IMG/VR virus record: IMGVR_UViG_3300042389_001027
Coordinates: 64,619-128,618 of that record
Direction: 5' to 3' (one strand)
DNA from: a virus
Length of the DNA: 64,000 nucleotides
Under the pieces are notes generated by a model. The model was not told where the DNA came from, did not search any database, and saw only the letters and a program-made list of their open reading frames with translations. The position numbers and the translations under genes were made by a program. Shown piece after piece: positions 20,363 through 54,561 of this stretch (position 1 is its first letter; the number at the start of each line of letters is the position of its first letter).

Positions 20363-20846
20363 AAGTTTCAGTATACCCAGTTGGTCCACATCAAGCAATA
20401 GGAACATGAGACCTAATACGAGTAGTTCAATCCACGTCTTAAAGAACTTGGAAAGATGTTCTGCATCACTAACCCATTTGAAGGGGGTTCGGGGGAAACT
20501 TTACGAATTCCCAAACCGCAACAGGTCCATGCAGTGGCTGACCCTCGCAAAACCATATGGCTGAGAGTTCAGTCGGATTTCGGCGCCGAATGAATTTGTT
20601 TCCGCCACCGTCGCTCTTTGTGGAACGACAGCAACGTATGCGATAGAGACGATAGCAGCGTGAGCCCCGCCTTGCAAGCACCTTTGTGAGTCCCGCACAA
20701 CAAAAATAGACAGGTTTGTAATATAGCCGCCGACTACTCGTGGTACTCTTGACAACAGGTCGCATGCCCCCCGTGCGGCTCAAGGCGTTGCAGGCGGGAC
20801 GGGTATGTGAGAGTTCCCCGTCCCGTCTCCGCTTTTAGCGGGGCTG

Positions 20847-21326
20847 TTACCCTGCAAGTGGTAGAAGGAACAAGCGGGACTCCCACATCATTCCGATGGC
20901 TGCGTATCCAACAACATCCATAAGATTGTCTTCAATGGATTCGTTGTGCGGCTTTCCGCCACCGTCATCACTTGAGAGAAGGTTTTCAAGGCGCGCCACC
21001 TTGTCATGCATGCGAACCATCAAGCCTTGCCGCCCGAAGCGACGGATGTTCTCATGCCCGTAGTCGCGCTGCTTCCTAACGAGGGTTGCGTGCACCTGCT
21101 CAATCGTCATTGGGGTGCCGCGCTTTGCCGCCAGTTCAATAGCATCGCCGCCAATGACTGCCCACATTGCTGCCGCTTTATGGAATCCTGCTGCCGCGTG
21201 GAACAAGTCATCAATAAACCCGTCTAAATCGCTGCGTATCTGAGTGAGGTCTGCTCTTGGCTGCCTACGGACTTGAACCCAAATCCCGTCTAGTGCCCAA
21301 CGCGCTGCTTCATCCCATGTGTCCAT
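20847..21326 (-). CDS. Nucleotide-modification-associated (DUF1599-like) protein
   Basis: KQRDYG...RMHDKVARL...ESIEDNLMDVVGYA. Confidence 0.75.
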   Translation of the reverse strand: MDTWDEAARWALDGIWVQVRRQPRADLTQIRSDLDGFIDDLFHAAAGFHKAAAMWAVIGGDAIELAAKRGTPMTIEQVHATLVRKQRDYGHENIRRFGRQGLMVRMHDKVARLENLLSSDDGGGKPHNESIEDNLMDVVGYAAIGMMWESRLFLLPLAG

Positions 21327-21372
21327 AGCGCATTTTTAGCACACCGCTATACGCCACCGTCAGTACTTGAGA

Positions 21373-21681
21373 CTACTCTTCCTCAAACTTTTTTGATGCT
21401 GCGAGCAGTGCCATCTGCATAAGGTTTGACATCGCCATCGCTGCCGCTGTCGCTTCGCCGAACTCTTCCGCGTTGACTTCAATAGCCCGCGAAAACTTTT
21501 CTTCCACAAACCGTTCGTTGTATAACACAACAATATTATCTTCGGTTAACTGGATGACGACTGGTCCGTCTTCATCCATGGTTTCGGGTGGTGCCGCGAT
21601 GACTGCAACCTGCTGTCCAGTTTCGGGGTTTTCAAACCGAAACATTACCTCAGGGTCGTCGCTTCCAAAATTAATGTCCAT
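21373..21681 (-). CDS. Acidic hypothetical protein
   Basis: AGGAG RBS; 102 aa. Confidence 0.7.
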   Translation of the reverse strand: MDINFGSDDPEVMFRFENPETGQQVAVIAAPPETMDEDGPVVIQLTEDNIVVLYNERFVEEKFSRAIEVNAEEFGEATAAAMAMSNLMQMALLAASKKFEEE

Positions 21682-21728
21682 TACATATCTCCTAATAGTT
21701 AGTTTACAGCAGTGGCTTTACGCCACCG

Positions 21729-21977
21729 TCAATCATTGCGAGCGACATTATGGGTGATGTTGTATGCGCGTGCCACTGGCCACGCATCAGTCTTCTCGCA
21801 ACCTCCGTCAAAGAAATCCTTCAATGCTTCGTCTTCTCCGCACGCGGAGCAGATTTCTGTTTTGTTGTCCGCCCGCGAGAGCGCGCCGGGATATTCGCCG
21901 GGTCGTTCATTACAGGGAATCCAGTTGTCTTTACAACGTGGACAGATGTTGGGGATGTTCATGAGTTTGCCTTCCAT
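21729..21977 (-). CDS. Zn-finger hypothetical protein
   Basis: CPRC...ALSRADNKTEICSACG. Confidence 0.7.
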   Translation of the reverse strand: MEGKLMNIPNICPRCKDNWIPCNERPGEYPGALSRADNKTEICSACGEDEALKDFFDGGCEKTDAWPVARAYNITHNVARND

Positions 21978-22090
21978 TCGCAGTAGGAGTTGTAGTTTTC
22001 GTCGTTCTCTGGGTCAAGACCGTTCGCCTCGCACCAGTCTTCGTAGGTTGGTGTTGATTTAAAGATGTTCATTGTCGCTTTCCGCCACCG

Positions 22091-22381
22091 TCACTTCTTG
22101 CGAGTGTTTGTTTGGAACGCTTTCCAAACATCTACATCACTGTTTGCTGGATGATTCGCGCGCGATGCGATGATGGCTTGTGCTTCTTCGTGCCATTCTT
22201 CGTATGTCCGCGCCATGGTTGATGTCAGTTCGCCATCAGTGTAGAAGTCAAATACAACACCCTCATTAGTTACAACAAGAATCAGGATGTCCTGACCCAT
22301 GTCGTCTACGCCGTGGGGTAGTTGGATGACGATTTCTTTGCGTGCATCAAACTGACAGTTGAAATCCATACTGTCTGTCAT
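22091..22381 (-). CDS. Hypothetical protein
   Basis: GGAGG RBS; coupled. Confidence 0.7.
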   Translation of the reverse strand: MTDSMDFNCQFDARKEIVIQLPHGVDDMGQDILILVVTNEGVVFDFYTDGELTSTMARTYEEWHEEAQAIIASRANHPANSDVDVWKAFQTNTRKK

Positions 22382-22611
22382 GAGCGTTCCTCCGACTTTT
22401 CAATGACCGCATCCGCAATCCATTCACTGAGTTCGGTGCCTGCGTCTTCCCAGTCATCAAACTCTGCACAGATTTCTGCCCATGCTTCCGCTGTGAGAAC
22501 ATTCTCGTCGTCATCGTCGTAGTCGTACGACGGTTTCTCCCAGTACAACACACAGATGTCGTCGTTTGGATTTAGTTCGCCGAGTTGCTTGAGTAGTTCT
22601 GAAACTTTCAC
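22378..22611 (-). CDS. Acidic hypothetical protein
   Basis: GTGA overlap start, MKVSELLKQL. Confidence 0.7.
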   Translation of the reverse strand: MKVSELLKQLGELNPNDDICVLYWEKPSYDYDDDDENVLTAEAWAEICAEFDDWEDAGTELSEWIADAVIEKSEERS

Positions 22612-22874
22612 TTGTCTTCTGCTCCAATCAGGAAAAGGAATCCTGCTCCATTTCCTTCGGGGTCTTGTGAGGGGATAACGACGGTGCCGTCGGTAAAGAA
22701 AATCGCCATGGCGTCTGCGTCGTAGTTGTAGTCCCATGCGAACTGTTCGCATTCCGCCTTGGTGAGCGGTCGCACGAGTGCGATGGTTTTTCCTTTGAGG
22801 GAACCAAACTCACGCTCAATGTATTTGATGCGCTCGCCGTAGATTTCCTGCTCTGTCTTTAGTGCAGTGGGCAT
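22608..22874 (-). CDS. Hypothetical protein
   Basis: Strong RBS; PSQDPEGNGAG motif. Confidence 0.75.
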   Translation of the reverse strand: MPTALKTEQEIYGERIKYIEREFGSLKGKTIALVRPLTKAECEQFAWDYNYDADAMAIFFTDGTVVIPSQDPEGNGAGFLFLIGAEDK

Positions 22875-22907
22875 TACTCCTTCTTTCGTTTAGTAGATTT
22901 ACAGCAA

Positions 22908-22987
22908 GGATGGAACGGTTCCCCGACGGAACCTTTTCAGACTCTCGTATACCCACTTAGTAGCGAGCGTGTAAGTGTCTGCCATCC
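22908..22987 (-). ncRNA. Candidate structured 5' leader (three-way junction)
   Basis: GGAUGG/CCAUCC closing stem enclosing a long CAGAC/GUCUG hairpin and a GGUUCC/GGAACC hairpin, downstream of a TTGATA-17-TATACT promoter. Confidence 0.45.
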
Positions 22988-23022
22988 AGCAACAGAGAGT
23001 ATAACAACCCTCTGTGTATTTA

Positions 23023-23223
23023 TCAACTCATCTCAAAACAAAGATGTTCGTTGTTTACATCACGAGCGATGCCAGTGACCCACGCAGGATTTTCTGTTGG
23101 GTTTACGCCACCGTCACCTCTTGCAATGAGTTCAACAACTTTGTCAACTGCTTCGCCGAGCGCGCCGTTGAAATCGGTTGCATCAACATCGGTCGTGACC
23201 ATCACTGTTACGCGATACTTCAT
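23023..23223 (-). CDS. Hypothetical protein
   Basis: GGAGGTGG RBS; ATGA coupling. Confidence 0.65.
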   Translation of the reverse strand: MKYRVTVMVTTDVDATDFNGALGEAVDKVVELIARGDGGVNPTENPAWVTGIARDVNNEHLCFEMS

Positions 23224-23543
23224 ACCGCCACCTCCGCAAACTTGCTGTACTCGTTTACGAACTCTTGTGGAGTGTGAGCGAACCCTTTCTCCCATGCGGA
23301 TTCGTAGCACGCTTGAAGGAGTGCGAGTCTTGCGATTGCGAGAGAAACTGTCGGATAGTGCTCCAACCACTCGTTGGCAACGAAGTCTGTCCACCACAGG
23401 TAACCGCTGTCATCTGCGCCTTGAGAGACAACTGCTTTCATATCGTCGTTGATGATGACGCATACTTCCTTTGATATTTCAAAGTCTGTCATGTTTGGTT
23501 GATAATCGGTGTGTGCTGAGTCAATGATGTTTGTCATGTTCAT
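23220..23543 (-). CDS. Hypothetical protein
   Basis: 107 aa; coupled. Confidence 0.7.
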   Translation of the reverse strand: MNMTNIIDSAHTDYQPNMTDFEISKEVCVIINDDMKAVVSQGADDSGYLWWTDFVANEWLEHYPTVSLAIARLALLQACYESAWEKGFAHTPQEFVNEYSKFAEVAV

Positions 23544-23776
23544 CCCATTTCTTCTAGTAGTTCGTCTAATGCTTCGTAGTCAAGTGAGTCATCCAACCAT
23601 GCAACGCCGTCAGGAGTTCCTGCCGATGTGTAGACAAGATAGTTGGTTGCGAAATCTCGGTAGTTCATTTCTTTGCCGTACGCCATAACCATTTGGTAGA
23701 GCCGTTCGTCATTGGCGAGCCACAGGTTTACATTCCATGTCTCTCGGTTTTTCCAACCGTTGTAAGTCGTTTCCAT
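23540..23776 (-). CDS. Conserved phage hypothetical protein (YNGW.N.ETW family)
   Basis: YNGWKNRETWNVNLW...TPDGVAW; CTACTAGAAAGG leader. Confidence 0.8.
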   Translation of the reverse strand: METTYNGWKNRETWNVNLWLANDERLYQMVMAYGKEMNYRDFATNYLVYTSAGTPDGVAWLDDSLDYEALDELLEEMG

Positions 23777-23848
23777 TTTTACCTTTCTAGTAGATTTATC
23801 TATCAGCACCCACTTTACAGTGGGGGTGTAACACGGTTTATGCCACCG

Positions 23849-24292
23849 TCAGATGTTGCGATTGTTGTAGAGGTGGAGGAGCCACTCCATCATGTTGGAC
23901 TTGTATCCCTCCCACACGCTGTCGCCACTCATAATCCAGTCCGACAAGTCTTCCAAGTCTTGCTGAGTTGCGTCGTTCTGAATCCATTGGAGTGCTTTCC
24001 ACTCTCGGTCTTCTTCTGTGTAGATTCCGCCGTCAATGAGTGAGCCGACTTCATCTTTGATGGAGAGGGGGGAGTACGAGACTGCGTAGCGATACTTGTT
24101 GTCGCCCCACCCCGTGTCTTTGCCCATCTGCTCAATGGAGATTCCGTAACGCTTGCCGATGTCAGAGATTTCGCTGTCGCTGGCTTCGTCAAGGAGATGA
24201 TTGTCGTGGTCATCTAGGTTGTCGGTTTCTACGATGACGCATCCCTCAAGGTTGAGTACTGTGCCAGTAGTTGTGTCAATGATGAGTTTCAT
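23849..24292 (-). CDS. Hypothetical protein
   Basis: TACTAGAAAGG leader; 147 aa. Confidence 0.75.
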   Translation of the reverse strand: MKLIIDTTTGTVLNLEGCVIVETDNLDDHDNHLLDEASDSEISDIGKRYGISIEQMGKDTGWGDNKYRYAVSYSPLSIKDEVGSLIDGGIYTEEDREWKALQWIQNDATQQDLEDLSDWIMSGDSVWEGYKSNMMEWLLHLYNNRNI

Positions 24293-24351
24293 CTGTTTAC
24301 CTTTCTAGTAAGTAGGTGTTATGTAGAGTGTAATACACTCACAGCGTCCTG

Positions 24352-24654
24352 TCAACTCGCAACAGGATTTTTCGTATAAATAAACTCATACGGTTCGCAG
24401 AGGTCAATCGCCCACTCCTCGTGAGCAATGCCCCACACATCTCGGGATTCACTGATTGCCTTCATGAGACTCTCAAGTTCCTCACGGTTCATGTGGTAGT
24501 AGTACTCCTCAAAGAACTCGTTCTGGTCATCGGGGTTCCAAGTGTCGCCGTCAAACACGAGGGTGACTTCCTGAAGGGAGTCGCGCCCATCGTCGTGGTA
24601 GTAGATGGCGCACTCAAGTGTGAGTCCGTTTACTTCGGGGATTGTGATGGTCAT
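24352..24654 (-). CDS. Acidic hypothetical protein
   Basis: CTACTAGAAAGG leader. Confidence 0.75.
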   Translation of the reverse strand: MTITIPEVNGLTLECAIYYHDDGRDSLQEVTLVFDGDTWNPDDQNEFFEEYYYHMNREELESLMKAISESRDVWGIAHEEWAIDLCEPYEFIYTKNPVAS

Positions 24655-24715
24655 GTCGGTTACCTTTCTAGTAGTTGATGGAAGTATAACAGGTGGGTGT
24701 AACACACACAACTAT

Positions 24716-24871
24716 TTACTTCTCATTCTCTATAACGACGGGAGTCTCCTGAAGTGTGCGCATTTCTGCGAGCATTTCTAAAATCTCTGCGCTCTGTCGT
24801 TGTATGTCTGCGATGAGGGCGAGAGCCTTTGCTCTCTCCTCGGATGTCATGAGGTCGGGGTTGAAGGTCAT
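24716..24871 (-). CDS. Small coiled-coil hypothetical protein
   Basis: ATGA coupling; AAGGAG RBS. Confidence 0.6.
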   Translation of the reverse strand: MTFNPDLMTSEERAKALALIADIQRQSAEILEMLAEMRTLQETPVVIENEK

Positions 24872-25140
24872 ACAGACTCCTTCTGTTCCACGACTGACCA
24901 ACCGATGGGTTCGCACCGCCATGTCACTCCATCTACTTCTACTTCGTCACGCACGGACAGTGCGGTATGTGTGCGGTTCTCGGGGAGGTGCGGTTCTAGC
25001 GCATCCCACAGTGACCCGTTATATAGGTTGGTGTCACGGAACGCACGCTCAACGATGTCGTGACCTTCAGTGTTCTCCCACTCAAAAGTGGCTGAAGTCG
25101 GGTCGCCGAACGCTTTCCATGTGATGGTGATTGTTGCCAT
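24868..25140 (-). CDS. Hypothetical protein (YodL-like C-terminus)
   Basis: HTALSVRDEVEVDG..W.CEPIGW. Confidence 0.7.
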   Translation of the reverse strand: MATITITWKAFGDPTSATFEWENTEGHDIVERAFRDTNLYNGSLWDALEPHLPENRTHTALSVRDEVEVDGVTWRCEPIGWSVVEQKESV

Positions 25141-25173
25141 GTTTTTTCCTTTCGTTTAGTACTTACGAATACA

Positions 25174-25202
25174 ACTATACACGAGGGGTGTAACATTGTC
25201 AA
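25174..25202 (-). promoter_or_regulatory. Sigma70-type promoter with TGTTACACCCC spacer motif
   Basis: TTGACA-17-TATAGT. Confidence 0.85.
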
Positions 25203-25421
25203 CCTTTATTCAGAAAAGTTTAAAAGAATCTTTGGCGGAGAAAACTCATACAGATTTATGTAAAGAGTTCTTCCCAGTTACGCAAAACCCCCAAACCATT
25301 TACGCCCCCGCAAGCCCCGCAGCAAAAGCGTGCGCATCAGCCCCGCAGCGCACATTCATGTGCGGGACTCCCAGAAAAAGTCAAGAAATGTTCCCAGAGT
25401 TACGACATGGCGGGGCTGTGG

Positions 25422-25435
25422 CGAACTAATGTTCG
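25422..25435. promoter_or_regulatory. LexA (SOS) box overlapping the -10 of the HA-HTH gene
   Basis: CGAAC-TAAT-GTTCG. Confidence 0.75.
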
Positions 25436-25440
25436 GTTTC

Positions 25441-25836
25441 ATGAAACCCAATCGCATTGACAATGCCACTCGCTGGCAACTCCACCTAACAGCACTACAA
25501 CAGTTCGTTACCCGAACTGGCTCTGCCCGTGTTCCGTCCACACACACTGAGGTCGTGGAAGGTCGCAATGTTGCCCTTGGCGCATGGGTCGGGTACATGA
25601 GACAGCGCAATCGTGCTGGGTTGTTGTCCTCGGAGCGTAAGCAAACCCTTGAGGCAATCTCGGGCTGGGCTTGGGGACCGCTTCGCCCTGGCCCTGCGAC
25701 CAATACGGAACGAGATGAAAACATTGTCGTCCTTCGCTCACAAGGTCTGAGCCTTGAGACAATCGCAAGCAAGTTCGGTATCTCTCGTCAGCGAGTTCAT
25801 CAAATCGCTCGTTCACACACCAACGCCAATGCCTGA
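25441..25836 (+). CDS. Helicase-associated (HA) domain plus sigma-region-4-like HTH regulator
   Basis: W...L..L..F....G..RVP...LG.WV..MR...L..ER...L...GW.W; GLSLETIASKFGISRQRVHQI. Confidence 0.85.
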   Translation: MKPNRIDNATRWQLHLTALQQFVTRTGSARVPSTHTEVVEGRNVALGAWVGYMRQRNRAGLLSSERKQTLEAISGWAWGPLRPGPATNTERDENIVVLRSQGLSLETIASKFGISRQRVHQIARSHTNANA

Positions 25837-26122
25837 ACACGACCCAAGTAAGTGGAGAATGGTTGACCCCAACTGGCGTATCCCAGTTGATGAGTCTGAA
25901 GTCTTTACTCCCTTGGAGCAGAACCGAGTTCCGATTAGCGGTCTTGTGCTCAAGATGTTGTGGGGGTTTATCACATTCGTTGGTCTTGTTGGTGCTGGGG
26001 TGTTTGGTATCGCTAATCTTGCTGGCGCAGAACAAATCGGTCTACTGGATTCTTATGGAATCTCACTGATTCTGATTCTGCTCCGCGCTTTGGATAAAAC
26101 GACATTCGGGAAACAATCCTAA
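25829..26122 (+). CDS. Small 2-TM membrane protein
   Basis: Two hydrophobic segments. Confidence 0.65.
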   Translation: MPEHDPSKWRMVDPNWRIPVDESEVFTPLEQNRVPISGLVLKMLWGFITFVGLVGAGVFGIANLAGAEQIGLLDSYGISLILILLRALDKTTFGKQS

Positions 26123-26160
26123 AAACAAAACAACCCCTCAGGCTTTCGCCATTGGGGTTG
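26121..26160 (-). terminator. Intrinsic terminator
   Basis: CAACCCC...GGGGTTG stem with a U-tract on the minus strand. Confidence 0.8.
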
Positions 26161-26165
26161 CTTCG

Positions 26166-26205
26166 GAGCAGTTGAGGGTGAAAGGAGTAAAGTTCCTCAC
26201 TTCTC
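26166..26205 (-). ncRNA. 3'-UTR hairpin with anti-Shine-Dalgarno loop (candidate sRNA)
   Basis: UGAGG/CCUCA stem with loop AACUUUACUCCUUUCAC, directly followed by the terminator. Confidence 0.5.
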
Positions 26206-26244
26206 TATTTGGTCGTACGCCGACTATTCGTCGTACCAGCAGGG

Positions 26245-27735
26245 TCAGAGGTTGCCCCCCTGAACCCGTCGCCATGTTTGCTTCCAACAGTTTGGATACC
26301 ACATGGCTGGTTTGATTCCTGACTTCAGTTGCTCAAGAGCCTTGATTCCTTCTTGTACATTCACACGAACGATTACCTTTTCTTTGCGAACCTGCTTGAT
26401 ACAGTCCATTGCGAGAAAGTCCTCGTAACCGTGGTTGATTCCATGAACAAGTCCGTCCGTGATGAACACGACTGGTGCGTTCTTGTGTTGCTTCTGCTTG
26501 ATTGCCCAACGCAGAGCCTCACCGTCAACACCGTTGCCACCGCTACGCTCGGGAACTGCGTCAACCATACGACCCTTTTCCGCAAGAATGAACAAGTTGT
26601 CCTTCTTGTTTTGTGAGTCTGTGGAATAAACCGCAACCGTTGCGCCGGGAGCCTGCTCCATGATTTTCACAAGGTCTGCCGTGGAGAGTCGCATAGAGCC
26701 TGAACCGTCAATGATGACGACTCCACCGTTGCCCTTCTTGCTTGCGTCAAAGATACGACGCTCAGGGTCAATCAACATTCGCCCGATACGACGAGGGTTG
26801 CGTCCCATGTCGGTTGCCCGACGCTTGCGACCCAATCCACCTTGTGCGTGACGAGTGAGTGGGAGTTTGCGAACCTTGAGTTCTGCCCAAGAGACCGCAC
26901 GACCACCTTCGCTCGCAGGATTGATTTCCTTGAGTTTGGTTTTGTCAACCTTTGGCTTCGCAGGTTGCTTGTCTGCTTTGCCAATCTTGTTTGGTTGAGT
27001 TTCGCCGTTTGCTTCTGGCTTTCCGCCACCGTCATCACTTGACTGACCTTCTTGACCTTCCTCACCTTCGTCGTTCTCGTCCTCGGGTGGGTTGGCGATT
27101 CGGTCAATCATCTCTGCGATTACTTCGGTGTGGGTGAATCCCAACGGTGCGAGACCGCTTTTTGCGTCAACCGCCGTGCTTGCGAGAGTCCGACGCTTGT
27201 CTGCCTTCGCAATCAGTTTCTCAACCTTCTTGGCAATGTCTCGGAGTGCGTTCGCCCATTCGGGATTTTCCCTGCGGATTCCCGTGATGAATGGCTTGAG
27301 TCCTGCGGAGTTGGAGAATCCAACGACCGTGTAGACCGCACTTGTCCAATCGCCTTGCTTGGCGATTCGTACGCCTGCCTCAAGTTCAGACCCGTCGCTG
27401 AGGTGAGTGAGAACATCAAACCCTGCCTTCTGAGCAAGGAAGTTCACTCGGGATTCCTCAACTGCTCGCAGAGCGATTTCACTCGCAATGTTTCGCTGAA
27501 TCCATGCTGAGAAGTCGTGCGCTGGTGAGACCTTTGCGTGAACCATCTCGTGAGCCCGAATACAACGCTCAGTCTCTCCGTCATTTACGGGGACGACCAT
27601 CACCTTGTCAACAATGTTGGTGTGAGGGAGTCCTCGGACTGGAGCACATGGGTCAACGACCCACGCCCCAATCTCTGTGTCCCTGCGCCCCAACATCTCG
27701 GGCATGGGTTGGTTGTTCATTGTCGCAGTCATCAC
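26245..27735 (-). CDS. HEXXH metallopeptidase-like plus VWA (CobT-like) protein
   Basis: AHEMVH, acidic linker, IDGSGSM MIDAS motif, FITDG. Confidence 0.85.
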   Translation of the reverse strand: MMTATMNNQPMPEMLGRRDTEIGAWVVDPCAPVRGLPHTNIVDKVMVVPVNDGETERCIRAHEMVHAKVSPAHDFSAWIQRNIASEIALRAVEESRVNFLAQKAGFDVLTHLSDGSELEAGVRIAKQGDWTSAVYTVVGFSNSAGLKPFITGIRRENPEWANALRDIAKKVEKLIAKADKRRTLASTAVDAKSGLAPLGFTHTEVIAEMIDRIANPPEDENDEGEEGQEGQSSDDGGGKPEANGETQPNKIGKADKQPAKPKVDKTKLKEINPASEGGRAVSWAELKVRKLPLTRHAQGGLGRKRRATDMGRNPRRIGRMLIDPERRIFDASKKGNGGVVIIDGSGSMRLSTADLVKIMEQAPGATVAVYSTDSQNKKDNLFILAEKGRMVDAVPERSGGNGVDGEALRWAIKQKQHKNAPVVFITDGLVHGINHGYEDFLAMDCIKQVRKEKVIVRVNVQEGIKALEQLKSGIKPAMWYPNCWKQTWRRVQGGNL

Positions 27736-48053: not shown

Positions 48054-48755
48054 TTAGCGTGCTGGGAAGTCTCGGATTAGTACCGACTCCTTGTCCATCG
48101 TGTCCCTGCCAAGAACATGGATTTCTGTGTTGTTGTAGTTCCAAGTCTCACGAACATGATGGTGACCGCAGACATGAAGGTCAGGGTTGACCTTTTGCTG
48201 TAGTTCCAACACGAGTTCACGCTGAGCAACCGATACGGGAATGTCATCTTTGTATGTGAGTTGCTTTCCGTATGGTGCTTCGTGGGTGATGAGGACATCT
48301 ACTTTGTCGTTGCTCACTTCGTCTAAGTGATACGGGTTGATGAGTTCTTGCTTCCAGAATGAATGACCCAACTCTCGCTGTTTCCAGTCCACGCTGTACG
48401 CACCGCCGTAGCCCATGAATGTGTACCCGTTGATGTCAAAACGACACCCTCGTGGTATCCACTTGACCCACTTGTCAGGGGTAGGGATAGGGGTATGGTC
48501 GCCGTGTTCCTCTCGGAGTTTGTCCAAAAGGTCGTGGTTCTCATGGTTGCCGTCTATCCACAAGATAGGAATGTTGTTGTGTTCTGCGAGCAGACTCGCC
48601 CGTGCGATGAACTTACGCCCAAACGCTAGGTGAACCCAGTAGCCGAAGTCGCCACACGCAATGATGGTGTCAACATCGTTCTTCTTTGCATGGCGGAATA
48701 GCCAGTTCAGATGGCTCATGTTTCCATGAATGTCACCTGCGAACATGATTCTCAT
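48054..48755 (-). CDS. Metallophosphoesterase
   Basis: GDIHG, CGDFG, DGNHE, THEAP, GHHH. Confidence 0.92.
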   Translation of the reverse strand: MRIMFAGDIHGNMSHLNWLFRHAKKNDVDTIIACGDFGYWVHLAFGRKFIARASLLAEHNNIPILWIDGNHENHDLLDKLREEHGDHTPIPTPDKWVKWIPRGCRFDINGYTFMGYGGAYSVDWKQRELGHSFWKQELINPYHLDEVSNDKVDVLITHEAPYGKQLTYKDDIPVSVAQRELVLELQQKVNPDLHVCGHHHVRETWNYNNTEIHVLGRDTMDKESVLIRDFPAR

Positions 48756-48838
48756 TTATTGTCACCTCCTCGGTGCTCTAGTAGTTCTATAACCATAAGT
48801 ATAGCAAGGGGGTGTAACATTTGCAACTCCTAGATTTC

Positions 48839-48852
48839 AGAACATTTGTTCG
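48839..48852. promoter_or_regulatory. LexA box in a divergent promoter region
   Basis: AGAAC-ATTT-GTTCG immediately before the -10 of the gene at 48867. Confidence 0.65.
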
Positions 48853-48866
48853 TATAACATCATCAT

Positions 48867-49271
48867 GTGACACGGATTTCAGACCAACTACCTGACGACA
48901 TTATTTACCTGATTCGGAACATCAGTGAGGGAAACATCACAGATGCCGAAATGGAAGGTATTCTCCCAGATTTCTATGTGCGGGTAGCCGTCGTAGATGA
49001 GGGCAAAAACCTCCCCGTAAGCCCAGAAACGCACGACAAGGCTGCGGCTTGGATTGAGAAGCAGCGGGGCTTCCAGAAGCGTGCATCGGAGGCTTGGGCT
49101 GTCCTGCAGCGGGCGGAACCCATAGATGCGGTCGCCGTCGGCAAGGGAGGGAATCTTCCCGAATGGTTTGGCTACACATGGACATCAAACTTGATGTTTG
49201 ATTGGGCAACAAACCTGCATCTTGCTGTTTTTGATGCGGAAAAATACATTTCCGAACGAGGATTGCGTTAA
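48867..49271 (+). CDS. Hypothetical protein (leaderless)
   Basis: TAACAT-N6-GTG. Confidence 0.7.
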   Translation: MTRISDQLPDDIIYLIRNISEGNITDAEMEGILPDFYVRVAVVDEGKNLPVSPETHDKAAAWIEKQRGFQKRASEAWAVLQRAEPIDAVAVGKGGNLPEWFGYTWTSNLMFDWATNLHLAVFDAEKYISERGLR

Positions 49272-49272
49272 G

Positions 49273-50430
49273 TCAGAACAGTTGAGGCTGATGGTCGGGT
49301 ATTTCTGCGATTCGCTTCTCCGCCAACTTCGCATACTCGGGATTTAACTCAAACCCGATGCCATCCCTGCCCAACCGCTTTGCGACCGCCAGCGTTGTCC
49401 CAGAGCCCGCAAACGGGTCAAGTACGACACACGGGGCTACTGGGGCATCGCATGAGCACGTTGCCTCCCAGCCGACGGTGAACGTTGGGACTGTGTGTTT
49501 GAGGGTTGAGCCATCTTCCAGACCAGTTCGTCGCATCCCTTGTTCGTTGATGTCGTACTGCCCAGCCCCCTGTGCTGACCATGCCTGAAGGATTGGTTCG
49601 CCCTTCTCTGTCAGTCGGACATACGGATTCCCGCACTTGGAACAGCAACCTTTCTCAGATGTGCCTGCAAGAATGCACGGCTCAACGAGGTCGTGAGGGA
49701 AAGTTGCGAAATGCGCCCCTTTGTACGGCTTCGTGTTGATTGTCCAGACGGACCTGCGGTTCTTCATCGCTCCAACGGTGTAGTTCGCTGAAGACGAGTT
49801 CGCCTCTGTCCCTCGCCGCGAGTCCCGTCGTGCGCCACGGTTGTCGCCCGCCCAGATGGCTGGCTCCTTGATGGCTTCCGCATCGTAGAAGTACCTGGGT
49901 TTCTTTGCGAGGAGGAAGATGTATTCGTGTGATGTGGTGCAACGGTCAGTCACGCTTGACGGCATCGCATTCGGTTTGTTCCAAATGATGTCTTGTCGCA
50001 AATACCAGCCAGCATCTTGGAGCGCAAATGCTACTCGCCATGGGATGCCCATGAGGTCTTTTGGTTTTAAACCGTCGGGTGTGGACTTATGGAGTGTCCC
50101 AATGATTGTTCCAAGTGAAGTTGCCTGTTTGGAGTTCGGGTCAACGTTCGCTGAGCCGTCTGCGTTCCGCCCTTTGCCTGAGCCCGCATAACTGTCTCCG
50201 AGATTCAGCCAGAGAGTCCCGTCGTCACGAAGTACACGATGTATCTCTTTGAATACCTCAAGCATCGCAGCGACGAACTCTTGAGGTGATGGCTCCTGTC
50301 CGATTTGTCCTTCGTGTCCGTAATCACGCAACCCGAAGTACGGGGGTGATGTGACGACGCAGTGTACGGATTTGTCAGGTAGATGCGAAAGTCCTGTTCG
50401 GCAATCGCTAACAATCAGTTGTGTGGTCAA
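49273..50430 (-). CDS. DNA N4-cytosine/N6-adenine methyltransferase (beta class)
   Basis: VTSPPY near the N-terminus; HFATFP; [10 protein letters not shown] near the C-terminus. Confidence 0.93.
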
Positions 50431-50436
50431 GTTTCT

Positions 50437-50775
50437 CTATTTTCTAGTGAACCACTTCAGTACTCGTGCCCGAAGCGAAGGATTAACAATGTCGTTTGCC
50501 TTCACCACATTAGCGGTTTTTTCAATGATTTCCTTGATTCCTTCAGGCACGCTTGCGGTGACTTCAACTTTGATGTCGGCTTTCGCAGTGGATGTCTTCG
50601 GCGACTGTGTTTTCACGACTGTCTTCGCTGCGGGACGCTTACGCGGCTCAGCACTCTTCTGCGGCACAACTTTCTTCGCGGATGCCTTCTTCGCACCCGC
50701 TTTCTTCGCAGCGGTTTTCTTCGCAACTGCTTTCTTCGCGGCTGGTTTCTTTTTGGGTTGCTTGCTTTCGTTCAT
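50437..50775 (-). CDS. Histone H1-like Lys/Ala-rich protein
   Basis: PAAKKAVAKKTAAKKAGAKKASAKK repeats. Confidence 0.7.
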   Translation of the reverse strand: MNESKQPKKKPAAKKAVAKKTAAKKAGAKKASAKKVVPQKSAEPRKRPAAKTVVKTQSPKTSTAKADIKVEVTASVPEGIKEIIEKTANVVKANDIVNPSLRARVLKWFTRK

Positions 50776-50850
50776 AACACGCAACAGTAGTACGAACTTC
50801 GTTTTCGTAAGAGCACTTTCGGTCACATTTTATGAGATAGGGTTACATTC

Positions 50851-51468
50851 ATGGATGCGTATCCAACAACTCTTGACAAAGTCGCCCTGGTAGTAGAAGC
50901 AGCGAAAGTCGCAAAATCAGATGCGGTAAAACTGAACGGAATCGGGGAGGACATCAACCTTAACTTGTTCGGGTGGCGGGACTCCTCGCTGGTCGTCATC
51001 GCTCAGATGCTTGACAGCAGTCAGATTCCAAAAGACGAACGGTTCGCCAAAGTCGTGAATGCGCTTTGTATTATCAGACAAGGTTGGCAAGTTGATGGAT
51101 TTACGATGGTTGCGGAAGCGTTTTGCTCACTTTTGCCGTCGGACACGAGGGGCAAAGACCTTGCGGCGCAGTTCGCCGAGAAGGATTCGCCTGTGATGGA
51201 GTGCCTCTCGTTCACGCACGTATCGCACAAAGATGCGCTCTTCGTAACAGTCCCGTACACGTGCGTTCCGCCTCGCACGGTCATATACAAGACCCCGCTG
51301 AAGTACTCTGGTTACGAGGGTGTGCTCCGTGATAGAAAGTATCCCGCTGCGATGGGGAAGGCTCTTGACCTCCCGATTAGCGAGTCGGTGGTTGAGGATG
51401 GCGATGTGTTTCATGCCGTTCTCGCTGAGGGGTTGGCTGACGAAGGGTTTGATGTTCATTATCTTTAG
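50851..51468 (+). CDS. Hypothetical protein (leaderless)
   Basis: TAGGGT-N7-ATG; 205 aa. Confidence 0.75.
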   Translation: MDAYPTTLDKVALVVEAAKVAKSDAVKLNGIGEDINLNLFGWRDSSLVVIAQMLDSSQIPKDERFAKVVNALCIIRQGWQVDGFTMVAEAFCSLLPSDTRGKDLAAQFAEKDSPVMECLSFTHVSHKDALFVTVPYTCVPPRTVIYKTPLKYSGYEGVLRDRKYPAAMGKALDLPISESVVEDGDVFHAVLAEGLADEGFDVHYL

Positions 51469-51472
51469 TTTC

Positions 51473-51502
51473 TTGACATAACACATCTGTTATGTGTATA
51501 AT
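51473..51502 (+). promoter_or_regulatory. Consensus promoter overlapped by a palindromic operator
   Basis: TTGACA-18-TATAAT; ACATAACA-CATC-TGTTATGT inverted repeat. Confidence 0.85.
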
Positions 51503-51507
51503 GTAAA

Positions 51508-51578
51508 AAGCAGGCGTCTCCTTTCCGCCTGTGCCAAGACCCCCTCCGACTTCATGTGGTGGGGGTTTTTGGTTTTTT
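51508..51578 (+). ncRNA. ~70-nt small RNA with an anti-Shine-Dalgarno loop
   Basis: Own promoter; CAGGCG-UCUCCUUUC-CGCCUG hairpin; ACCCCC/GGGGGU terminator plus U-tract; no ORF. Confidence 0.7.
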
Positions 51579-51622
51579 GACAATGCTTGACTTCATGAAC
51601 TAGATTGGGTAAGTTTAGATAC

Positions 51623-51919
51623 ATGAACTACTACACCAATAAACAGCACCCAAACTACTACTACAGCATTCGCACTTTCGTAAGGGTCACCTTTTGGGGA
51701 GGTGTGGCAGTCGGTCTCTTCGTGGGGGCAGGCGTACTCGGAGAAAAACTGGCAGACGACCCACGACCCAAATGTGATGTGACAGTCAATGTGGATTTCA
51801 CATGGGTCAATAACGGCACAACATGGGTTGACCTCACAATGTGCCAAAACCCGAACAACGGGATTTTCCTTGAGCCCGACGGAACATGGCGTTGGTACGA
51901 CCCAGAGTTGGATAACTGA
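51623..51919 (+). CDS. Single-TM hypothetical protein (leaderless)
   Basis: TTGACT...TAAGTT-N7-ATG; one hydrophobic helix. Confidence 0.7.
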   Translation: MNYYTNKQHPNYYYSIRTFVRVTFWGGVAVGLFVGAGVLGEKLADDPRPKCDVTVNVDFTWVNNGTTWVDLTMCQNPNNGIFLEPDGTWRWYDPELDN

Positions 51920-51933
51920 GTAGACTGCGAGAC

Positions 51934-52266
51934 ATGACAATGGACATGGACACATACCAGCAACAAGCATCCACCACAGCGAAGTACCCCGAAAGCACAG
52001 GCTTGATTTACTGCGTGCTCGGGCTCGCATCCGAAGCAGGTGAAGTCGCTGGCAAACTGAAGAAAGCCATCCGTGACGAGAACGGCGTCCTGTCGGAGTC
52101 CCGCAAGGAAGACTTGCTCGCGGAACTCGGCGATGTGCTCTGGTACTGCGCGATGACCGCGATGGAACTTGATGCGACGCTCTCCTCGGTCGCTGAGGCA
52201 AATCTCAACAAACTGTTTGACCGCAAAGACCGTGGTGTCATCGGGGGCGATGGGGACAAGCGGTGA
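51934..52266 (+). CDS. mazG: MazG-like nucleotide pyrophosphohydrolase
   Basis: LGLASEAGEVA.K.KK...ELGDVLWY...N..KL..R. Confidence 0.9.
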   Translation: MTMDMDTYQQQASTTAKYPESTGLIYCVLGLASEAGEVAGKLKKAIRDENGVLSESRKEDLLAELGDVLWYCAMTAMELDATLSSVAEANLNKLFDRKDRGVIGGDGDKR

Positions 52267-52323
52267 AAGCCTTCATTTCCGTCATTGCCGTGCTTGGCAT
52301 GGTTTTGCTGATTGGAATGCGAA

Positions 52324-52584
52324 ATGACTGACACAACTTGGACTTGGTTGCTGTTCGGAATGGAAATCATTGGTGTCACAGGAATGTGGTACGCAGGGAA
52401 AAAGATGTGGTGGGGCTGGCTCATCGTCATCCTCCACACCATCCCGTGGTTCATTTACGCCGTCACCCACAACAAGCCCGGATTCGTCGCAATGTCATTG
52501 ATGTGGTGGGCTGTTCACTGGCGGAACATGATTCGCTGGCGCAGGGAAGAGCGTTGGAGCAAGGCGGGGCTTGTGAGGGGATGA
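52324..52584 (+). CDS. Small PnuC-like membrane protein
   Basis: G.W..G.K.WWGW......W..YA...GF...RN...W pattern. Confidence 0.65.
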   Translation: MTDTTWTWLLFGMEIIGVTGMWYAGKKMWWGWLIVILHTIPWFIYAVTHNKPGFVAMSLMWWAVHWRNMIRWRREERWSKAGLVRG

Positions 52585-52588
52585 ACCC

Positions 52589-53098
52589 TCAGTCGCCCTC
52601 CTTCCACAACTTCTCCAACTCGTCGCGCTCCTCCGACTCCCGCTGGACGCGCTCCATGATTGCGTCAAACACACCACCCAACCCGTCGGGGTTATCCAAC
52701 TCCTCGCCCATGAGCCGCTGGATTTCCATGTGTGCGTCAAGTTCCTCGTCGGTCATAGCGTTCAGTTCACGCTCGTATGCGACTTGCTGACCTGCGAACA
52801 GGAACATCTCCAACTGTAGGTCGTCAATCAACTTGAACTCCGAAATCATGTTGTTCAGATAAACCGCTGACGGAATGCGTTCTCCCGTACGAATGCTCTG
52901 TGCGATGTTGTGCCAAAACAGTTCCGTCTTGTACTCGTACAGTCTCACTAGGTCATCGGGGATGAAGTCATCCTGCCAATCCCATCCGTCAAGGTCAAAG
53001 TCCTTAGCCGATGGCACTCGGTCAGGGAAACGCTTCATGGATTCTGCCCGTAGAGCCCCATGACCGTCGTCGCCTTCATTACTATCTATGTCAAACAT
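52589..53098 (-). CDS. Acidic hypothetical protein
   Basis: 169 aa; GGAAGG RBS. Confidence 0.7.
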   Translation of the reverse strand: MFDIDSNEGDDGHGALRAESMKRFPDRVPSAKDFDLDGWDWQDDFIPDDLVRLYEYKTELFWHNIAQSIRTGERIPSAVYLNNMISEFKLIDDLQLEMFLFAGQQVAYERELNAMTDEELDAHMEIQRLMGEELDNPDGLGGVFDAIMERVQRESEERDELEKLWKEGD

Positions 53099-53206
53099 TG
53101 TCTATACCTTCCTTGTTTATGCCCCCTCCGTGGGGGTCTATGTCTATAACGAACAAAGGTGGGGAAAGTGTGCGCTCCCCATCGGCTTGTAATACTAAAA
53201 TGTTGT

Positions 53207-53389
53207 ATGGGAAAGAAAAAGAAATCATCAGGTTCGCAATCCACAGGTCGCACCCGTGTGAACCCCTTGACTGGTCAAGTGGAAACTGTGAGTGGGACAA
53301 AGGCTGGCAAACGACGGTCGTACCTCCCTGCTGGACACCCCCTCAGGACACACGACATTCAGGGCGCATCAAAGAAGAAAGACAAGTAG
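53207..53389 (+). CDS. Small basic protein (leaderless)
   Basis: TAAAAT-N5-ATG; MGKKKKSSG...KKKDK. Confidence 0.6.
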   Translation: MGKKKKSSGSQSTGRTRVNPLTGQVETVSGTKAGKRRSYLPAGHPLRTHDIQGASKKKDK

Positions 53390-53549
53390 TCCCGCTCTCA
53401 TGATGCCCTCCTCATGGCGACCATCACCAGATAGCCGTATCGCTGTGCGCTTCGCACTCACGGGGCTTCTGGCGTTCTTCTCGTGGTTGTGCGGGGTTGT
53501 CTCGTTCGCACTTCTCTGTTGGGGTTCGTGGGTGTATTCACGCCGTCGG

Positions 53550-53714
53550 TCAGGTACATAGTTCACAGTATTCATGGGGGTCGTGGTCGCATACTTCGTA
53601 CCACACTTCCCATTCGTAATAGTCGTGGCTGTCAAGGTACTCTCGTACTTCCCTCTTAGCCTGTCGCCTGTGTTGCTTGACCTTGTGACGGTAATACAAC
53701 AGTCCTAGTATCAC
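53550..53714 (-). CDS. Small hypothetical protein (54 aa, not in the ORF track)
   Basis: Hand translation MILGLLYYRHKVKQHRRQAKREVREYLDSHDYYEWEVWYEVCDHDPHEYCELCT. Confidence 0.45.
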   Translation of the reverse strand: MILGLLYYRHKVKQHRRQAKREVREYLDSHDYYEWEVWYEVCDHDPHEYCELCT

Positions 53715-53793
53715 TTTGATACCCGTGAACTACCCGTGAGCATCTTGACGATGCGCCTGAGCGTCACTCTCCTTATCCAAGTCAAGTAGAGAT

Positions 53794-53841
53794 GTATCAC
53801 TTCGTATCTCTTTGTATCACTTTGTATCCCTTTGTATTGCT
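53794..53841. repeat. 10-bp tandem repeat x5 (GTATCNCTTY), iteron-like
   Basis: GTATCACTTC GTATCTCTTT GTATCACTTT GTATCCCTTT GTATTGCT. Confidence 0.75.
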
Positions 53842-53975
53842 GATTCCATTTATACAAACTCTTTCCTGTATTAGCAGAGGGGTCTCCTCCACTATAGACA
53901 ACATAACAGATGTGTTAGATGTTGTCAAGTGTTACGAATAAATATTTACCCGTGAGCACCCGTAAGCACTAAAGC

Positions 53976-54007
53976 AAAAAGAGGGGAGAGGTGTTACCTC
54001 CTCCCCT
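53976..54007 (-). terminator. Intrinsic terminator
   Basis: AGGGGAG...CTCCCCT stem plus A-tract. Confidence 0.7.
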
Positions 54008-54012
54008 TGCTT

Positions 54013-54291
54013 TCAGAACTTGTAGTCGGTGTAGAAGATTGGGGTCTCTGTCTCCCTCAAGGGGCGCATACCTTGACCTGTGCGGTATGTGCCGTCTTTG
54101 CGGAGTCGCACTGTCATTGTGTATCCCTCAGGGCAAGTGATTGCGATGTGTCCAACTACTGGCAACTCTGCGCCATCGTTGTAAACCTGCTCGCCTTGAC
54201 TCATCTGACGAATCGTAATCGTCTTAGCCGTCTGACGAATCACTTCCCAACATCTTGTGTCTGTCACAAGCGTTTCTGTCATGAACTTCAT
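54013..54291 (-). CDS. Hypothetical protein
   Basis: CTACTAGAAAGG leader; promoter at 54335-54363. Confidence 0.8.
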   Translation of the reverse strand: MKFMTETLVTDTRCWEVIRQTAKTITIRQMSQGEQVYNDGAELPVVGHIAITCPEGYTMTVRLRKDGTYRTGQGMRPLRETETPIFYTDYKF

Positions 54292-54334
54292 TGCTCTACC
54301 TTTCTAGTAGTTCAGGTACTTCCTGATAAATCTA

Positions 54335-54363
54335 ACTATAACAGGGGGGTGTAACATTGTCAA
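54335..54363 (-). promoter_or_regulatory. Sigma70-type promoter with TGTTACACCCC spacer motif
   Basis: TTGACA-17-TATAGT. Confidence 0.85.
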
Positions 54364-54415
54364 CCCCAAAACAAAAGAAATCCAAAAAACTTCCGAAACC
54401 CTCAAGCCCCTCCAA

Positions 54416-54448
54416 CAATCCACAACCTGTGGAAAAACCTGTGGACAA
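54416..54448. promoter_or_regulatory. Small cluster of degenerate DnaA boxes
   Basis: CAATCCACA, TGTGGAAAA, TGTGGACAA at 12-bp period. Confidence 0.55.
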
Positions 54449-54561
54449 CACACAACAACAACAAACAGCAATACACACGGGACTACTGACCTTTTAGACG
54501 CGAGCAAAAGGCGCGGGCGTACCTACACCAAATTTTTAGAGTCCCACAACTTGATTTAGAT

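Follow-up and report, generated by a model that had tools for sequence, protein, structure and literature searches.

IMG/VR virus record IMGVR_UViG_3300042389_001027, here G000, is a 128,618-bp phage genome, of which we analyzed a stretch of 64,000 nucleotides (bases 64619 to 128618 of the record; "the window," whose coordinates are used below unless genome positions are indicated). Within the window, a domain at 20663 to 54484 is marked by the asymmetric heptamer AGYCCCG, which occurs there 61 times (31 copies on the plus strand and 30 on the minus strand) and nowhere else in the window. The word is under selection as DNA, is confined to one segment in related phages as well, and follows rules of orientation and spacing.

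The domain holds small early-type genes, many without known function, together with genes that PHROGs or Pfam matches identify as encoding SNF2, SSB, DUF932, DUF3846, DUF4314, Api92-like, and CobS/CobT-like ATPase proteins, a dCMP deaminase, MazG, a metallophosphatase, and a methylase. The genome is that of a myovirus, with major head protein, portal, large terminase, sheath, tube, and baseplate genes recognized by the same databases, and it bears marks typical of Actinobacteria phages: two WhiB proteins, an Rpf-type transglycosylase, and DUF732. The host is probably a freshwater actinobacterium. The record repeats its first 30 bases 127 bp from its end (a 127-bp assembly overlap), so the contig is a circular assembly whose ends are arbitrary. 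When 44 kb of the window were compared by megablast with 50,697 phage records, no match to a cultured relative emerged, and the nearest cultured SNF2 protein matches were Arthrobacter phage helicases at 32 to 37% identity. DNA of G000 is present in many lake, river, and freshwater metagenome runs. In four river metatranscriptome libraries, contigs match single domain genes nearly end to end within 35887 to 48761 (for example, at 37728 to 38259, 45448 to 46533, and 47454 to 47951), and none falls on SNF2; such contigs can prove neither transcription nor its absence, nor do they bear on the motif.

A heptamer confined to one genome segment

Shuffled versions of the sequence held 11.9 copies of AGYCCCG on average and 20 at most, so that none of 100 shuffles reached 61; the enrichment anticipated by an earlier reading of this DNA from its letters alone (the first-pass annotation) is borne out. 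That annotation had counted by hand roughly 55 to 60 half-sites between 20.6 and 54.5 kb, close to the computed number, and essentially none at 1 to 20 kb or 55 to 64 kb. We found none at all there, and the absence extends to the whole 128.6-kb genome: the other 94.6 kb, including the half of the record that lies beyond the window, contain no copy. Markov models of orders 0 to 4 expect 9.3 to 19.9 sites outside the domain, where zero are observed, and models of orders 0 to 3 expect 7.3 to 9.3 inside, where the 61 sites amount to an approximately 7-fold enrichment. The word is therefore both enriched inside the domain and excluded outside it. The information sits in the seven bases, which form an asymmetric core, and variants of AGYCCCG with one mismatch show no comparable enrichment. 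The base that follows the motif (position 8) is C or T in G000, with G at 0 of the 61 sites, is mostly A in the relative G001, and is weakly G in the relative G002.

As a separate observation on near-motif words, 7-mers one letter off the motif that contain GGCC, GGNCC, AGCT, or CCGG are absent or nearly so both inside and outside the domain. Over the whole genome, the counts inside and outside are 0 and 0 for each of GGCCCCG, AGCTCCG, and AGTCCGG, and this scarcity suggests avoidance of 4- to 5-bp restriction sites.

Confinement in related phages

A search with the SNF2 protein recovered 41 IMG/VR loci, of which 29 carry 8.9 to 28.8 AGYCCCG sites per 10 kb. The remaining 12 carry fewer than 4 per 10 kb, and 10 of these are distant relatives, with SNF2 proteins of 27 to 44% identity. 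Seven related environmental phage genomes hold 25 to 82 sites in one contiguous segment and almost none outside it, and the segment measures 28.5 to 37 kb where both of its edges are seen. The complete 137-kb genome G002 has 82 sites in one 33.4-kb stretch that runs over the contig join and none in the other 103 kb, where 13.9 to 25.6 would be expected. G001 (118 kb) has 60 sites, 59 of them within 75,308 to 109,670; the sole outlying site (4.7 to 10.4 expected) sits in a terminator-like hairpin. The sites form one block in G003 (72 kb, 25 sites) and in G004 (57 kb, 47 sites), and one block except for a single site 6.6 kb off in G005 (59 kb, 77 sites). G011 (138 kb) has 49 sites at 32,902 to 61,422, and G012 (145 kb) has 45 at 28,527 to 56,996. 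In G000, G001, and G002, GC content is higher within the domain than outside it. The distant phages G006 and G007 hold 16 and 5 copies, scattered and un-enriched, in approximately 92 kb each, and they share too few genes for a phylogenetic-profile comparison. The confinement of AGYCCCG is a real, conserved, and unusual feature.

Two further ideas about the segment failed. Its length is not constant: it is 33.4 to 34.4 kb in G000, G001, G002, and G004, but 28.5 kb in G011 and G012 and 37 kb in G005. The sequence TTTCCAAA, which is enriched near SNF2 in distant relatives, was considered as an analogous label but occurs genome-wide in G006 and G007 and is therefore not analogous to AGYCCCG.

Selection on the DNA itself

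By our own gene calls, 27 of the 61 sites of G000 lie within genes, 8 of them in the SNF2 helicase gene (39620 to 41548, plus strand), which agrees with the earlier remark that many half-sites fall inside coding sequences. Thirteen are sense and 14 antisense, all six phases are used, and site orientation does not depend on gene strand. When SNF2 genes are aligned by codon, the positions of sites, including most of those in G000, recur across genes whose proteins are 55 to 75% identical. Among 12 nonredundant SNF2 genes (60% mean nucleotide identity), 190 of 665 ordered comparisons (28.6%) retained the site at its aligned position, a rate about five times that of other 7-mers (5.9%) or GC-rich 7-mers (5.2%). 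At one position, the codons GCG, ACG, TCG, or CCG precede GGR CTN, and the residue is Ala, Thr, Ser, or Pro while the motif stays; at another, the motif persists through the residues DGT, DGA, DGGA, EVPA, or EPGA, although in L028 it occupies the opposite strand.

Genes that cross the domain boundary between genomes behave in the same manner. A block encoding ribbon-helix-helix (RHH), helix-turn-helix (HTH), primase-helicase, and WhiB proteins lies outside the domain in G000, with no site in 4.8 kb, and inside it in G001 and G002, with 3 and 7 sites, respectively. Conversely, the gene at 50851 to 51468 has two sites in G000, and its orthologues, which lie outside the domain in G001 and G002, have none. 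Sites track location, not the gene, and selection acts on the DNA, not on protein or RNA.

Orientation and spacing of sites

Nine inverted pairs in G000 are intergenic and tight, with spacers of 17 bp in seven, 16 bp in one, and 18 bp in one, exactly as had been described. A third half-site, invariably of the form AGCCCCG, accompanies six of the nine at a distance of 19 to 31 bp; the first-pass annotation had given 25 to 40 bp. The claim that every intergenic island holds a pair does not survive: among 31 gaps of at least 60 bp (as delimited by rough gene calls), 14 hold a site and 9 hold a tight pair. The N17 pairs are confined to one subclade (G000, L013 to L015, L038, L041, G011, and G012), and G001 and G002 have almost no tight pairs. 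The first-pass annotation had staked its reading on a low density outside the domain and on a conserved spacer in homologous islands. The density outside is zero, as described above, but the spacer is not conserved and ranges from 16 to 27 bp in the homologous islands of L015. A triple pattern, AGCCCCG, 19 to 31 bp, AGYCCCG, 16 to 18 bp, CGGGRCT, occurs in 66 stretches of approximately 40 viral contigs, often several times per contig, where rough arithmetic puts the chance expectation at a handful. The arms of tight pairs, compared at position 3 (C or T), are alike in 18 cases and unlike in 20, from which it follows that arm complementarity is not selected.

A broader rule governs neighboring sites, whether tightly paired or not. 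Their orientation alternates more than under shuffled labels in G000 (43 of 60 steps; P = 0.0008), G001 (36 of 58; P = 0.04), and G002 (54 of 81; P = 0.0008). For spacing, we used ten sequences of distinct lineages. Neighbors less than 90 bp apart comprise 39 convergent, 1 divergent, and 14 direct arrangements. At 90 to 200 bp, there are 40 convergent and 46 divergent (86 inverted) against 8 direct, and at 200 to 300 bp, 19 convergent and 39 divergent (58 inverted) against 20 direct; beyond 300 bp, about half are inverted and half direct. With expectations obtained by shifting the two orientation classes at random against each other, opposite-orientation pairs are in excess at 131 to 200 bp (67 observed versus 36.4 expected; standard deviation, 5.8), and same-orientation pairs are depleted at 46 to 130 bp (3 versus 44), 131 to 200 bp (10 versus 36), and 201 to 300 bp (32 versus 51). 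The inversion rule holds separately in G000, G001, G002, L020, and L027.

Organization of the marked domain

One edge of the domain is a cluster at 20663 to 20881 with plus-strand sites at 20663 and 20689 and, approximately 140 bp further on, minus-strand sites at 20839 and 20875; G011 and G012 have larger symmetric edge clusters (+++/----). The first island (25313 to 25417) has four sites, arranged as a plus-strand site, a plus N17 minus pair starting at 25339, and a minus-strand site. In the island at 29737 to 29795, a plus N18 minus pair starting at 29737 is followed 20 bp on by a minus-strand third site, and a tandem DnaA-box pair lies at 29615/29627. Plus-strand third sites precede plus N17 minus pairs in the islands at 32732 to 32794 (pair at 32764), 34793 to 34858 (34828), 37259 to 37317 (37287), and 38503 to 38571 (38541). 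On the minus strand, a terminator-like GC hairpin with a T-run precedes the first of these, and the third lies in a 1.2-kb uncalled stretch beside 11 DnaA-box-like 9-mers (37062 to 37184). The island at 35645 to 35674 is a plus N16 minus pair starting at 35645, with seven DnaA-box-like 9-mers at 35754 to 35875. Two further plus N17 minus pairs lie at 39444 to 39474, where leftward and rightward gene blocks diverge, and at 41896 to 41926, just upstream of a tRNA-Ile gene (41953 to 42027). Read on the minus strand, the G000 islands follow an order of terminator-like hairpin, island, and then other repeated motifs. The right part of the domain (42907 to 54484) has 26 mostly single sites, chiefly in genes and alternating in orientation.

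Several other repeated sequences occur in the domain. A start-associated leader with the consensus aacTACTAGAAAGGtaaa stands approximately 8 to 15 nucleotides before the ATG of many domain genes; 21 of 22 copies lie at 23552 to 54302 of the window (for example, 24303, 31955, and 42289), and TACTAGAA has 22 copies genome-wide, 20 of them inside the marked domain. The leader resembles start-associated sequences of Cluster K and EF actinophages, as described in PMC7302621. Upstream of the leader motif is a promoter-like element consisting of TGTTACACCCC, approximately 4 nucleotides, and then TATAGT, TATACT, or TAAAGT, a spacing too short for a standard -35/-10 pair (23824, 24695, 25186, 28588, 29596, 32494, 38952, 48810, and 54347); GGGTGTAACA has nine exact copies, all in the domain. 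A second domain motif, with the consensus CAAGTnnnGACGGTGGCG(G/T)AAAGC, has 11 minus-strand copies at 20604 to 38440, plus one at 16353. Every copy has the orientation of the gene strand, many stand a short way before a start codon or promoter, and the motif is kept as ACGGTGGCGGAA in G001 (6 of 6 copies in the domain) and as ACGGTGGTGGAA in G002 (5 of 6). Each of eight copies of AAAGTGTGCGCTC (24752, 28620, 29561, 32549, 32622, 34545, 35238, and 53166) has a TATAACGAAC-like sequence approximately 12 nucleotides upstream, possibly another promoter class read on the opposite strand. The 128-amino-acid product of a domain gene at 50437 to 50826 (minus strand) matches histone H1-like HC2 below threshold (E = 3.4e-6) and is possibly a basic, non-specific DNA-binding protein.

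Elsewhere in the genome, an unusual set of auxiliary genes (window 3049 to 7950 and 57683 to 58870; genome 6235 to 7599, 10558 to 11280, and 12061 to 12618) includes two 2OG-Fe(II) oxygenases flanking a tryptophan-halogenase-like gene, a family III CoA-transferase (E = 2e-93), a histone-deacetylase-domain protein, a dual-specificity phosphatase, a sulfotransferase, and an Asp/Asn beta-hydroxylase. Outside the window, at genome 15649 to 28181 (minus strand), five large genes (441 to 970 amino acids) lie between the major head protein and the protease/portal genes. Four have no PHROG or Pfam match and the 441-amino-acid one has only a PepSY-domain match; they possibly encode internal or ejected virion proteins.

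Replication genes, DnaA boxes, and candidate readers

Just outside the edge cluster, and transcribed away from the domain, lie a replication-organiser-like gene (19964 to 20407, minus strand; phrog_16167) and a loader-like gene (19540 to 19971, minus strand; phrog_2289). The organiser-like gene is found at one end of the marked segment in all seven genomes examined, with four sites beyond it in G002; in G000, G001, and G002, it reads away from the sites, which stand just upstream of it. Its predicted protein model has weak fold matches only, to SPP1 G39P (Z = 4.6) and DnaD domains (Z = 4.2). A conserved element, GGTTCCCCCGRACCCCCTYCAAA, occurs just upstream of this gene in G000 (20440 to 20470), G001 (near 109,900), and G002 (near 136,370).

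DnaA-box-like 9-mers (TTATCCACA with at most one mismatch) number 35 in the window, against 14 expected. Eleven lie in 123 bp at 37062 to 37184, with a spacing of approximately 11 to 12 bp and alternating orientation; seven lie in 122 bp at 35754 to 35875; and tandem pairs lie at 29615 to 29635 and 54428 to 54448. These arrays are likely to represent a phage origin or promoters under DnaA control. G001 and G005 have tandem pairs in mid-domain as well, and no DnaA-box cluster was found in G002. The idea that the domain is centered on a DnaA-box origin fits G000 (array at 37.1 kb, midpoint at 37.6 kb) and fails in G002 and G001. Outside the domain of G001, an origin-like region at 66,280 to 66,410 (L064 6280 to 6410) has three DnaA boxes followed by four GAACACATGTACGAC-like iterons.

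A candidate reader operon with overlapping reading frames lies at 62661 to 64000 (minus strand), outside the domain in G000. It comprises the 3' part of a primase-helicase gene with Toprim and AAA_25 domains (63651 to 64000, running over the contig join), a 213-amino-acid HTH protein gene that overlaps the primase-helicase stop codon (63010 to 63651), and a 120-amino-acid RHH protein gene (62661 to 63023), all on the minus strand. The model of the 213-amino-acid protein has an N-terminal HTH that matches sigma region 4, LuxR, and DeoR DNA-binding domains at Z = 7 to 9, followed by long helices and an acidic tail. In Foldseek searches with this model and with that of the organiser-like protein, no PDB entry reached an E value as low as 0.001. 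The HTH protein is 55 to 68% identical across relatives, has 2,071 homologues, all unnamed, and was found in 15 of the 29 motif-rich loci and in none of the 12 motif-poor loci. As candidate reader it is no more than a lead. Further conserved candidates are an 82-amino-acid zinc-ribbon protein (21729 to 21977) and the DUF4314 protein (29810 to 30061).

The reader proposed earlier, in a parS-like system, was a ParB-like protein of 272 amino acids (59156 to 59974, minus strand). This proposal is not upheld: sites are single or 16 to 27 bp apart, scans of PHROGs and Pfam families gave no ParA-type match (a missing match is not proof), and homologues at 38 to 39% identity are encoded by G006 and G007, which lack the pattern. 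Pfam finds in this protein a ParB_N domain only and no HTH domain match. A second gene with a ParB N-terminal domain lies at genome 38482 to 39027.

Interpretation and alternative explanations

The data require a reader that acts in cis on double-stranded DNA, recognizes an asymmetric 7-mer, and gains from a second site in opposite orientation, adjacent or 130 to 300 bp off; it gains nothing from a nearby site in the same orientation, and no site is tolerated elsewhere. We think it probable, on the sequence patterns, that AGYCCCG forms an array of sites for a sequence-specific DNA-binding protein, and we lean slightly toward these sites acting in inverted pairs. The reader would probably be phage encoded and would place one subunit on each 7-bp site of double-stranded DNA, with two subunits cooperating on sites of opposite orientation. 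Cooperation may take place side by side on the tight convergent pairs (spacers of 16 to 27 bp, one subclade) or, for sites approximately 130 to 300 bp apart, by looping of the short stretch of DNA between them. The fading of the orientation rule beyond approximately 300 bp, together with the scarcity of same-orientation neighbors, points to short-range looping by a 2-fold symmetric protein. Laid over a contiguous segment of 28 to 37 kb of early-type and replication genes, the array would set that segment apart from the remaining chromosome. As the output we favor domain-wide control of access for transcription, with the segment shut off or insulated when late genes take over. In that case, a stray copy within a long late operon would do harm, and this would account for the complete absence of sites elsewhere; the monomeric stoperator repressors of actinophages offer a precedent (PMC9283540). 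Binding by a protein, the bridging of pairs, and the output are what we infer. Transcriptional control, though favored over other outputs, is rather doubtful, and the reading as a whole, a paired-half-site array that marks the early/replication segment, is a tentative one whose chances we place a little short of even. The earlier suggestion of binding sites for a dimeric protein is supported in kind, as sites for a protein that acts in pairs, by selection at the DNA level, inverted neighbors within 300 bp, and the lack of selection for complementary arms.

The main rival is a label for replication, since the segment is built around replication genes and the HTH candidate is translationally coupled to the primase-helicase. 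The sites would then serve for recognition or loading by the primase-helicase with its HTH and RHH partners, or by the organiser/loader pair, and inverted pairs would load two helicases back to back across a broad initiation or titration zone. A need for strictly inverted sites is familiar from the loading of double-hexamer helicases. Organiser- and loader-like genes stand at the segment end in seven of seven genomes, with a symmetric cluster just upstream in G000, G011, and G012; SSB, SNF2, and (in G001 and G002) the primase-helicase are encoded inside the segment; the candidate HTH gene overlaps the primase-helicase stop codon; and DnaA-box arrays adjoin islands in G000, with tandem pairs mid-domain in G001 and G005. 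However, 45 to 82 sites over 28 to 37 kb are unlike any known origin, in-gene sites have no adjoining AT-rich unwinding region, G002 has no DnaA-box cluster, the origin-like region of G001 (66.28 to 66.41 kb) is outside its segment, and a replication signal has no obvious need of total exclusion elsewhere. We consider this explanation unlikely. Sites at which a strand-specific enzyme nicks or modifies a base, one strand being cut or marked per site, are a distinctly weaker candidate. Close same-strand sites would be avoided because short gaps would be released, and same-orientation sites within 300 bp are indeed depleted (42 observed versus 94.6 expected). A cleavage signal would naturally be tolerated nowhere else, the encoded proteins include several conserved small nucleases (phrog_452 and phrog_26427), and the first domain gene has a weak, below-cutoff DUF1599 "nucleotide modification" match (E = 7e-4). 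Yet tight convergent pairs would yield double-strand breaks, and the attraction of opposite-orientation sites at 131 to 200 bp is not predicted. The domain's only DNA methylase (N6/N4; 49273 to 50430) has no homologue in G001 or G002; it is not conserved with the motif, and a role as its reader is not supported.

Alternatively, a DNA-translocating machine, for example a small-terminase-like ring of the HTH protein, might read the word as a signal of the packaging or uptake type; packaging would then begin, and genome ends lie, within the segment and nowhere else. Its distribution mimics that of bacterial uptake sequences (both orientations, within genes, inverted pairs at gene ends), extra signals elsewhere would harm, the HTH protein over its whole length weakly matches the structure of the G20c small terminase (113 residues aligned), and PHROGs name no small terminase in the genome, including beside the large terminase. 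Against this, known pac or cos regions are shorter than 1 kb, the terminase match is weak and stands among generic HTH hits, the HTH gene belongs to the primase-helicase operon, and the contig ends are arbitrary rather than physical genome ends; we regard this explanation as very unlikely. More improbable still is that one of the two ParB-like proteins reads the sites as a parS-like system for centromere function or condensation. Bacteria do have multiple parS sites in an origin-proximal segment, as well as binding to half-parS heptamers, and two proteins with ParB N-terminal domains are encoded here. However, the sites are not abutting palindromes, the 272-amino-acid protein has homologues in motif-free phages and a ParB_N domain only, no ParA-type match came from the PHROGs and Pfam scans, and 45 to 82 sites are, to our knowledge, far above any parS count. 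Least credible of all are RNA or single-strand hairpins (terminators or processing sites) and recombination joints bounding cassettes, the latter also put forward in the first-pass annotation. Pairs of the G000 subclade do stand in intergenic islands between a terminator-like hairpin and promoter-like motifs, and the triple pattern recurs across approximately 40 viral contigs. Cassette joints leave the 27 in-gene sites, single and in either orientation, and the conserved SNF2 positions unexplained, and tight pairs are nearly absent from G001 and G002, which nonetheless retain the domain pattern. For a plain stem, the convergent and divergent arrangements (39 to 1) would be equivalent, 20 of 38 tight pairs have noncomplementary arms, and we found neither covariation of the arms nor a fixed orientation to the transcript, sites lying on both gene strands.

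Several points also weigh against the paired-half-site array with a transcriptional output. A roadblock should follow transcription, as stoperators do, and here orientation ignores gene strand. One site per 400 to 590 bp, in genes, is far denser than any operator network that we know of. A segment rich in replication genes, with the organiser gene at one end in every genome examined, fits a role in replication equally well. L024 and L039, short contigs of 6 to 16 kb, have SNF2 proteins 59 to 65% identical and yet no enrichment of AGYCCCG; no replacement motif was found in them, and they may represent loss of the system. The ten sequences of the spacing analysis are kin, which makes its P values optimistic, and the gene calls are our own and rough. 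Phylogeny and synteny confound the association between the HTH protein and the motif. The fold of this protein is a generic one, and a small-terminase-like reading of it is possible, since the model also matches G20c TerS (Z = 6.6; root mean square deviation, 7.4).

In the usual picture, phage control relies on promoters, terminators, and a few operators. Here, dozens of 7-bp words are kept through coding sequence, and selection bends protein sequence to keep the word and removes every copy from three quarters of the genome. This implies a process acting in cis on a whole genome segment, outside known phage regulatory schemes, in a pattern that spans a diverse clade (the HTH protein family described above). 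The reader, whatever its identity, would be a compact and highly specific DNA-binding module, and the pattern could be used to delimit the early/replication module in uncultured actinophage genomes.

Comparison with known systems

Our literature search found no description of such a domain-restricted word in a virus. Iteron origins, in which a replication protein reads the repeats, share with the array short repeats and perhaps an adjacent initiator gene. In P4 ori/crr and in R6K gamma with alpha and beta, monomers bind single repeats, dimers bind inverted half-repeats, and looping links distant sites. However, iteron origins have approximately 6 to 20 repeats within a few kilobases, and typically approximately 1 kb with an AT-rich region and DnaA boxes, whereas the AGYCCCG array covers 28 to 37 kb, including coding sequence, with boxes in G000, G001, and G005 and not in G002. 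The site cluster does adjoin the organiser-like gene, whose likeness to DnaD/G39P is weak (Z of 4.6 or less). ParB/parS systems likewise have several sites in one replication-gene segment, and ParB-like genes are present here. A parS site is a palindrome of approximately 16 bp with abutting half-sites, whereas the AGYCCCG half-sites are nonpalindromic and either single or 16 to 27 bp or more apart; no ParA match was found in the family scans, and the ParB-like gene is also carried by motif-free phages.

The stoperators of actinophages are a further comparison. According to PMC9283540, monomeric repressors bind more than 20 asymmetric sites and stop elongation, and the gp71-type repressor of Cluster A mycobacteriophage L5 is proposed to stop both initiation and elongation of transcription. 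Both systems belong to actinobacterial phages and have a short, asymmetric site in many copies over tens of kilobases, with one subunit per site (here a prediction). Stoperators, however, are 13-mers that number little more than 20, lie in short intergenic spaces genome-wide, and point with transcription. AGYCCCG has 7 bp and 45 to 82 copies, almost half of them within genes in G000; its sites are oriented independently of gene strand (13 sense and 14 antisense) and paired with their neighbors, and they occupy one segment and are absent elsewhere. Among the family matches noted there was no integrase or repressor, and no search aimed at either was made. Intergenic repeats numbering 5 to 12 per genome are given for actinophages in PMC7302621.

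Two bacterial codes are also comparable. The DNA uptake sequences of Neisseria and Pasteurellaceae are short, are selected at the DNA level within genes in any frame and in both orientations, form inverted pairs at gene ends, and are spread genome-wide in a competent bacterium, where the uptake machinery reads them. Their presence or absence marks native versus foreign segments, according to PMC2346458 and PMC7371117. Unlike them, AGYCCCG occupies about one quarter of a phage genome and is paired in orientation with its neighbors. For matS/MatP, SlmA, and Noc, the presence or absence of a short motif defines a large chromosome segment, SlmA and Noc sites being absent from the terminus region; these sites are 12- to 16-bp palindromes in tens of copies over hundreds of kilobases of cellular chromosomes. 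AGYCCCG resembles them as a segment-defining motif, which in those systems is read by a DNA-binding protein that bridges or spreads, and differs in being an asymmetric 7-mer, once per 400 to 590 bp, in a virus, with complete exclusion outside. It is possible, if short of what we would expect, that the marked segment is a sequence-addressed chromosome domain, in which a 7-bp label tells a protein which quarter of the chromosome to fold, silence, or license. Such a domain, read by a phage or a host protein, might with similar reserve be taken as a viral counterpart of bacterial macrodomain or uptake-sequence codes.

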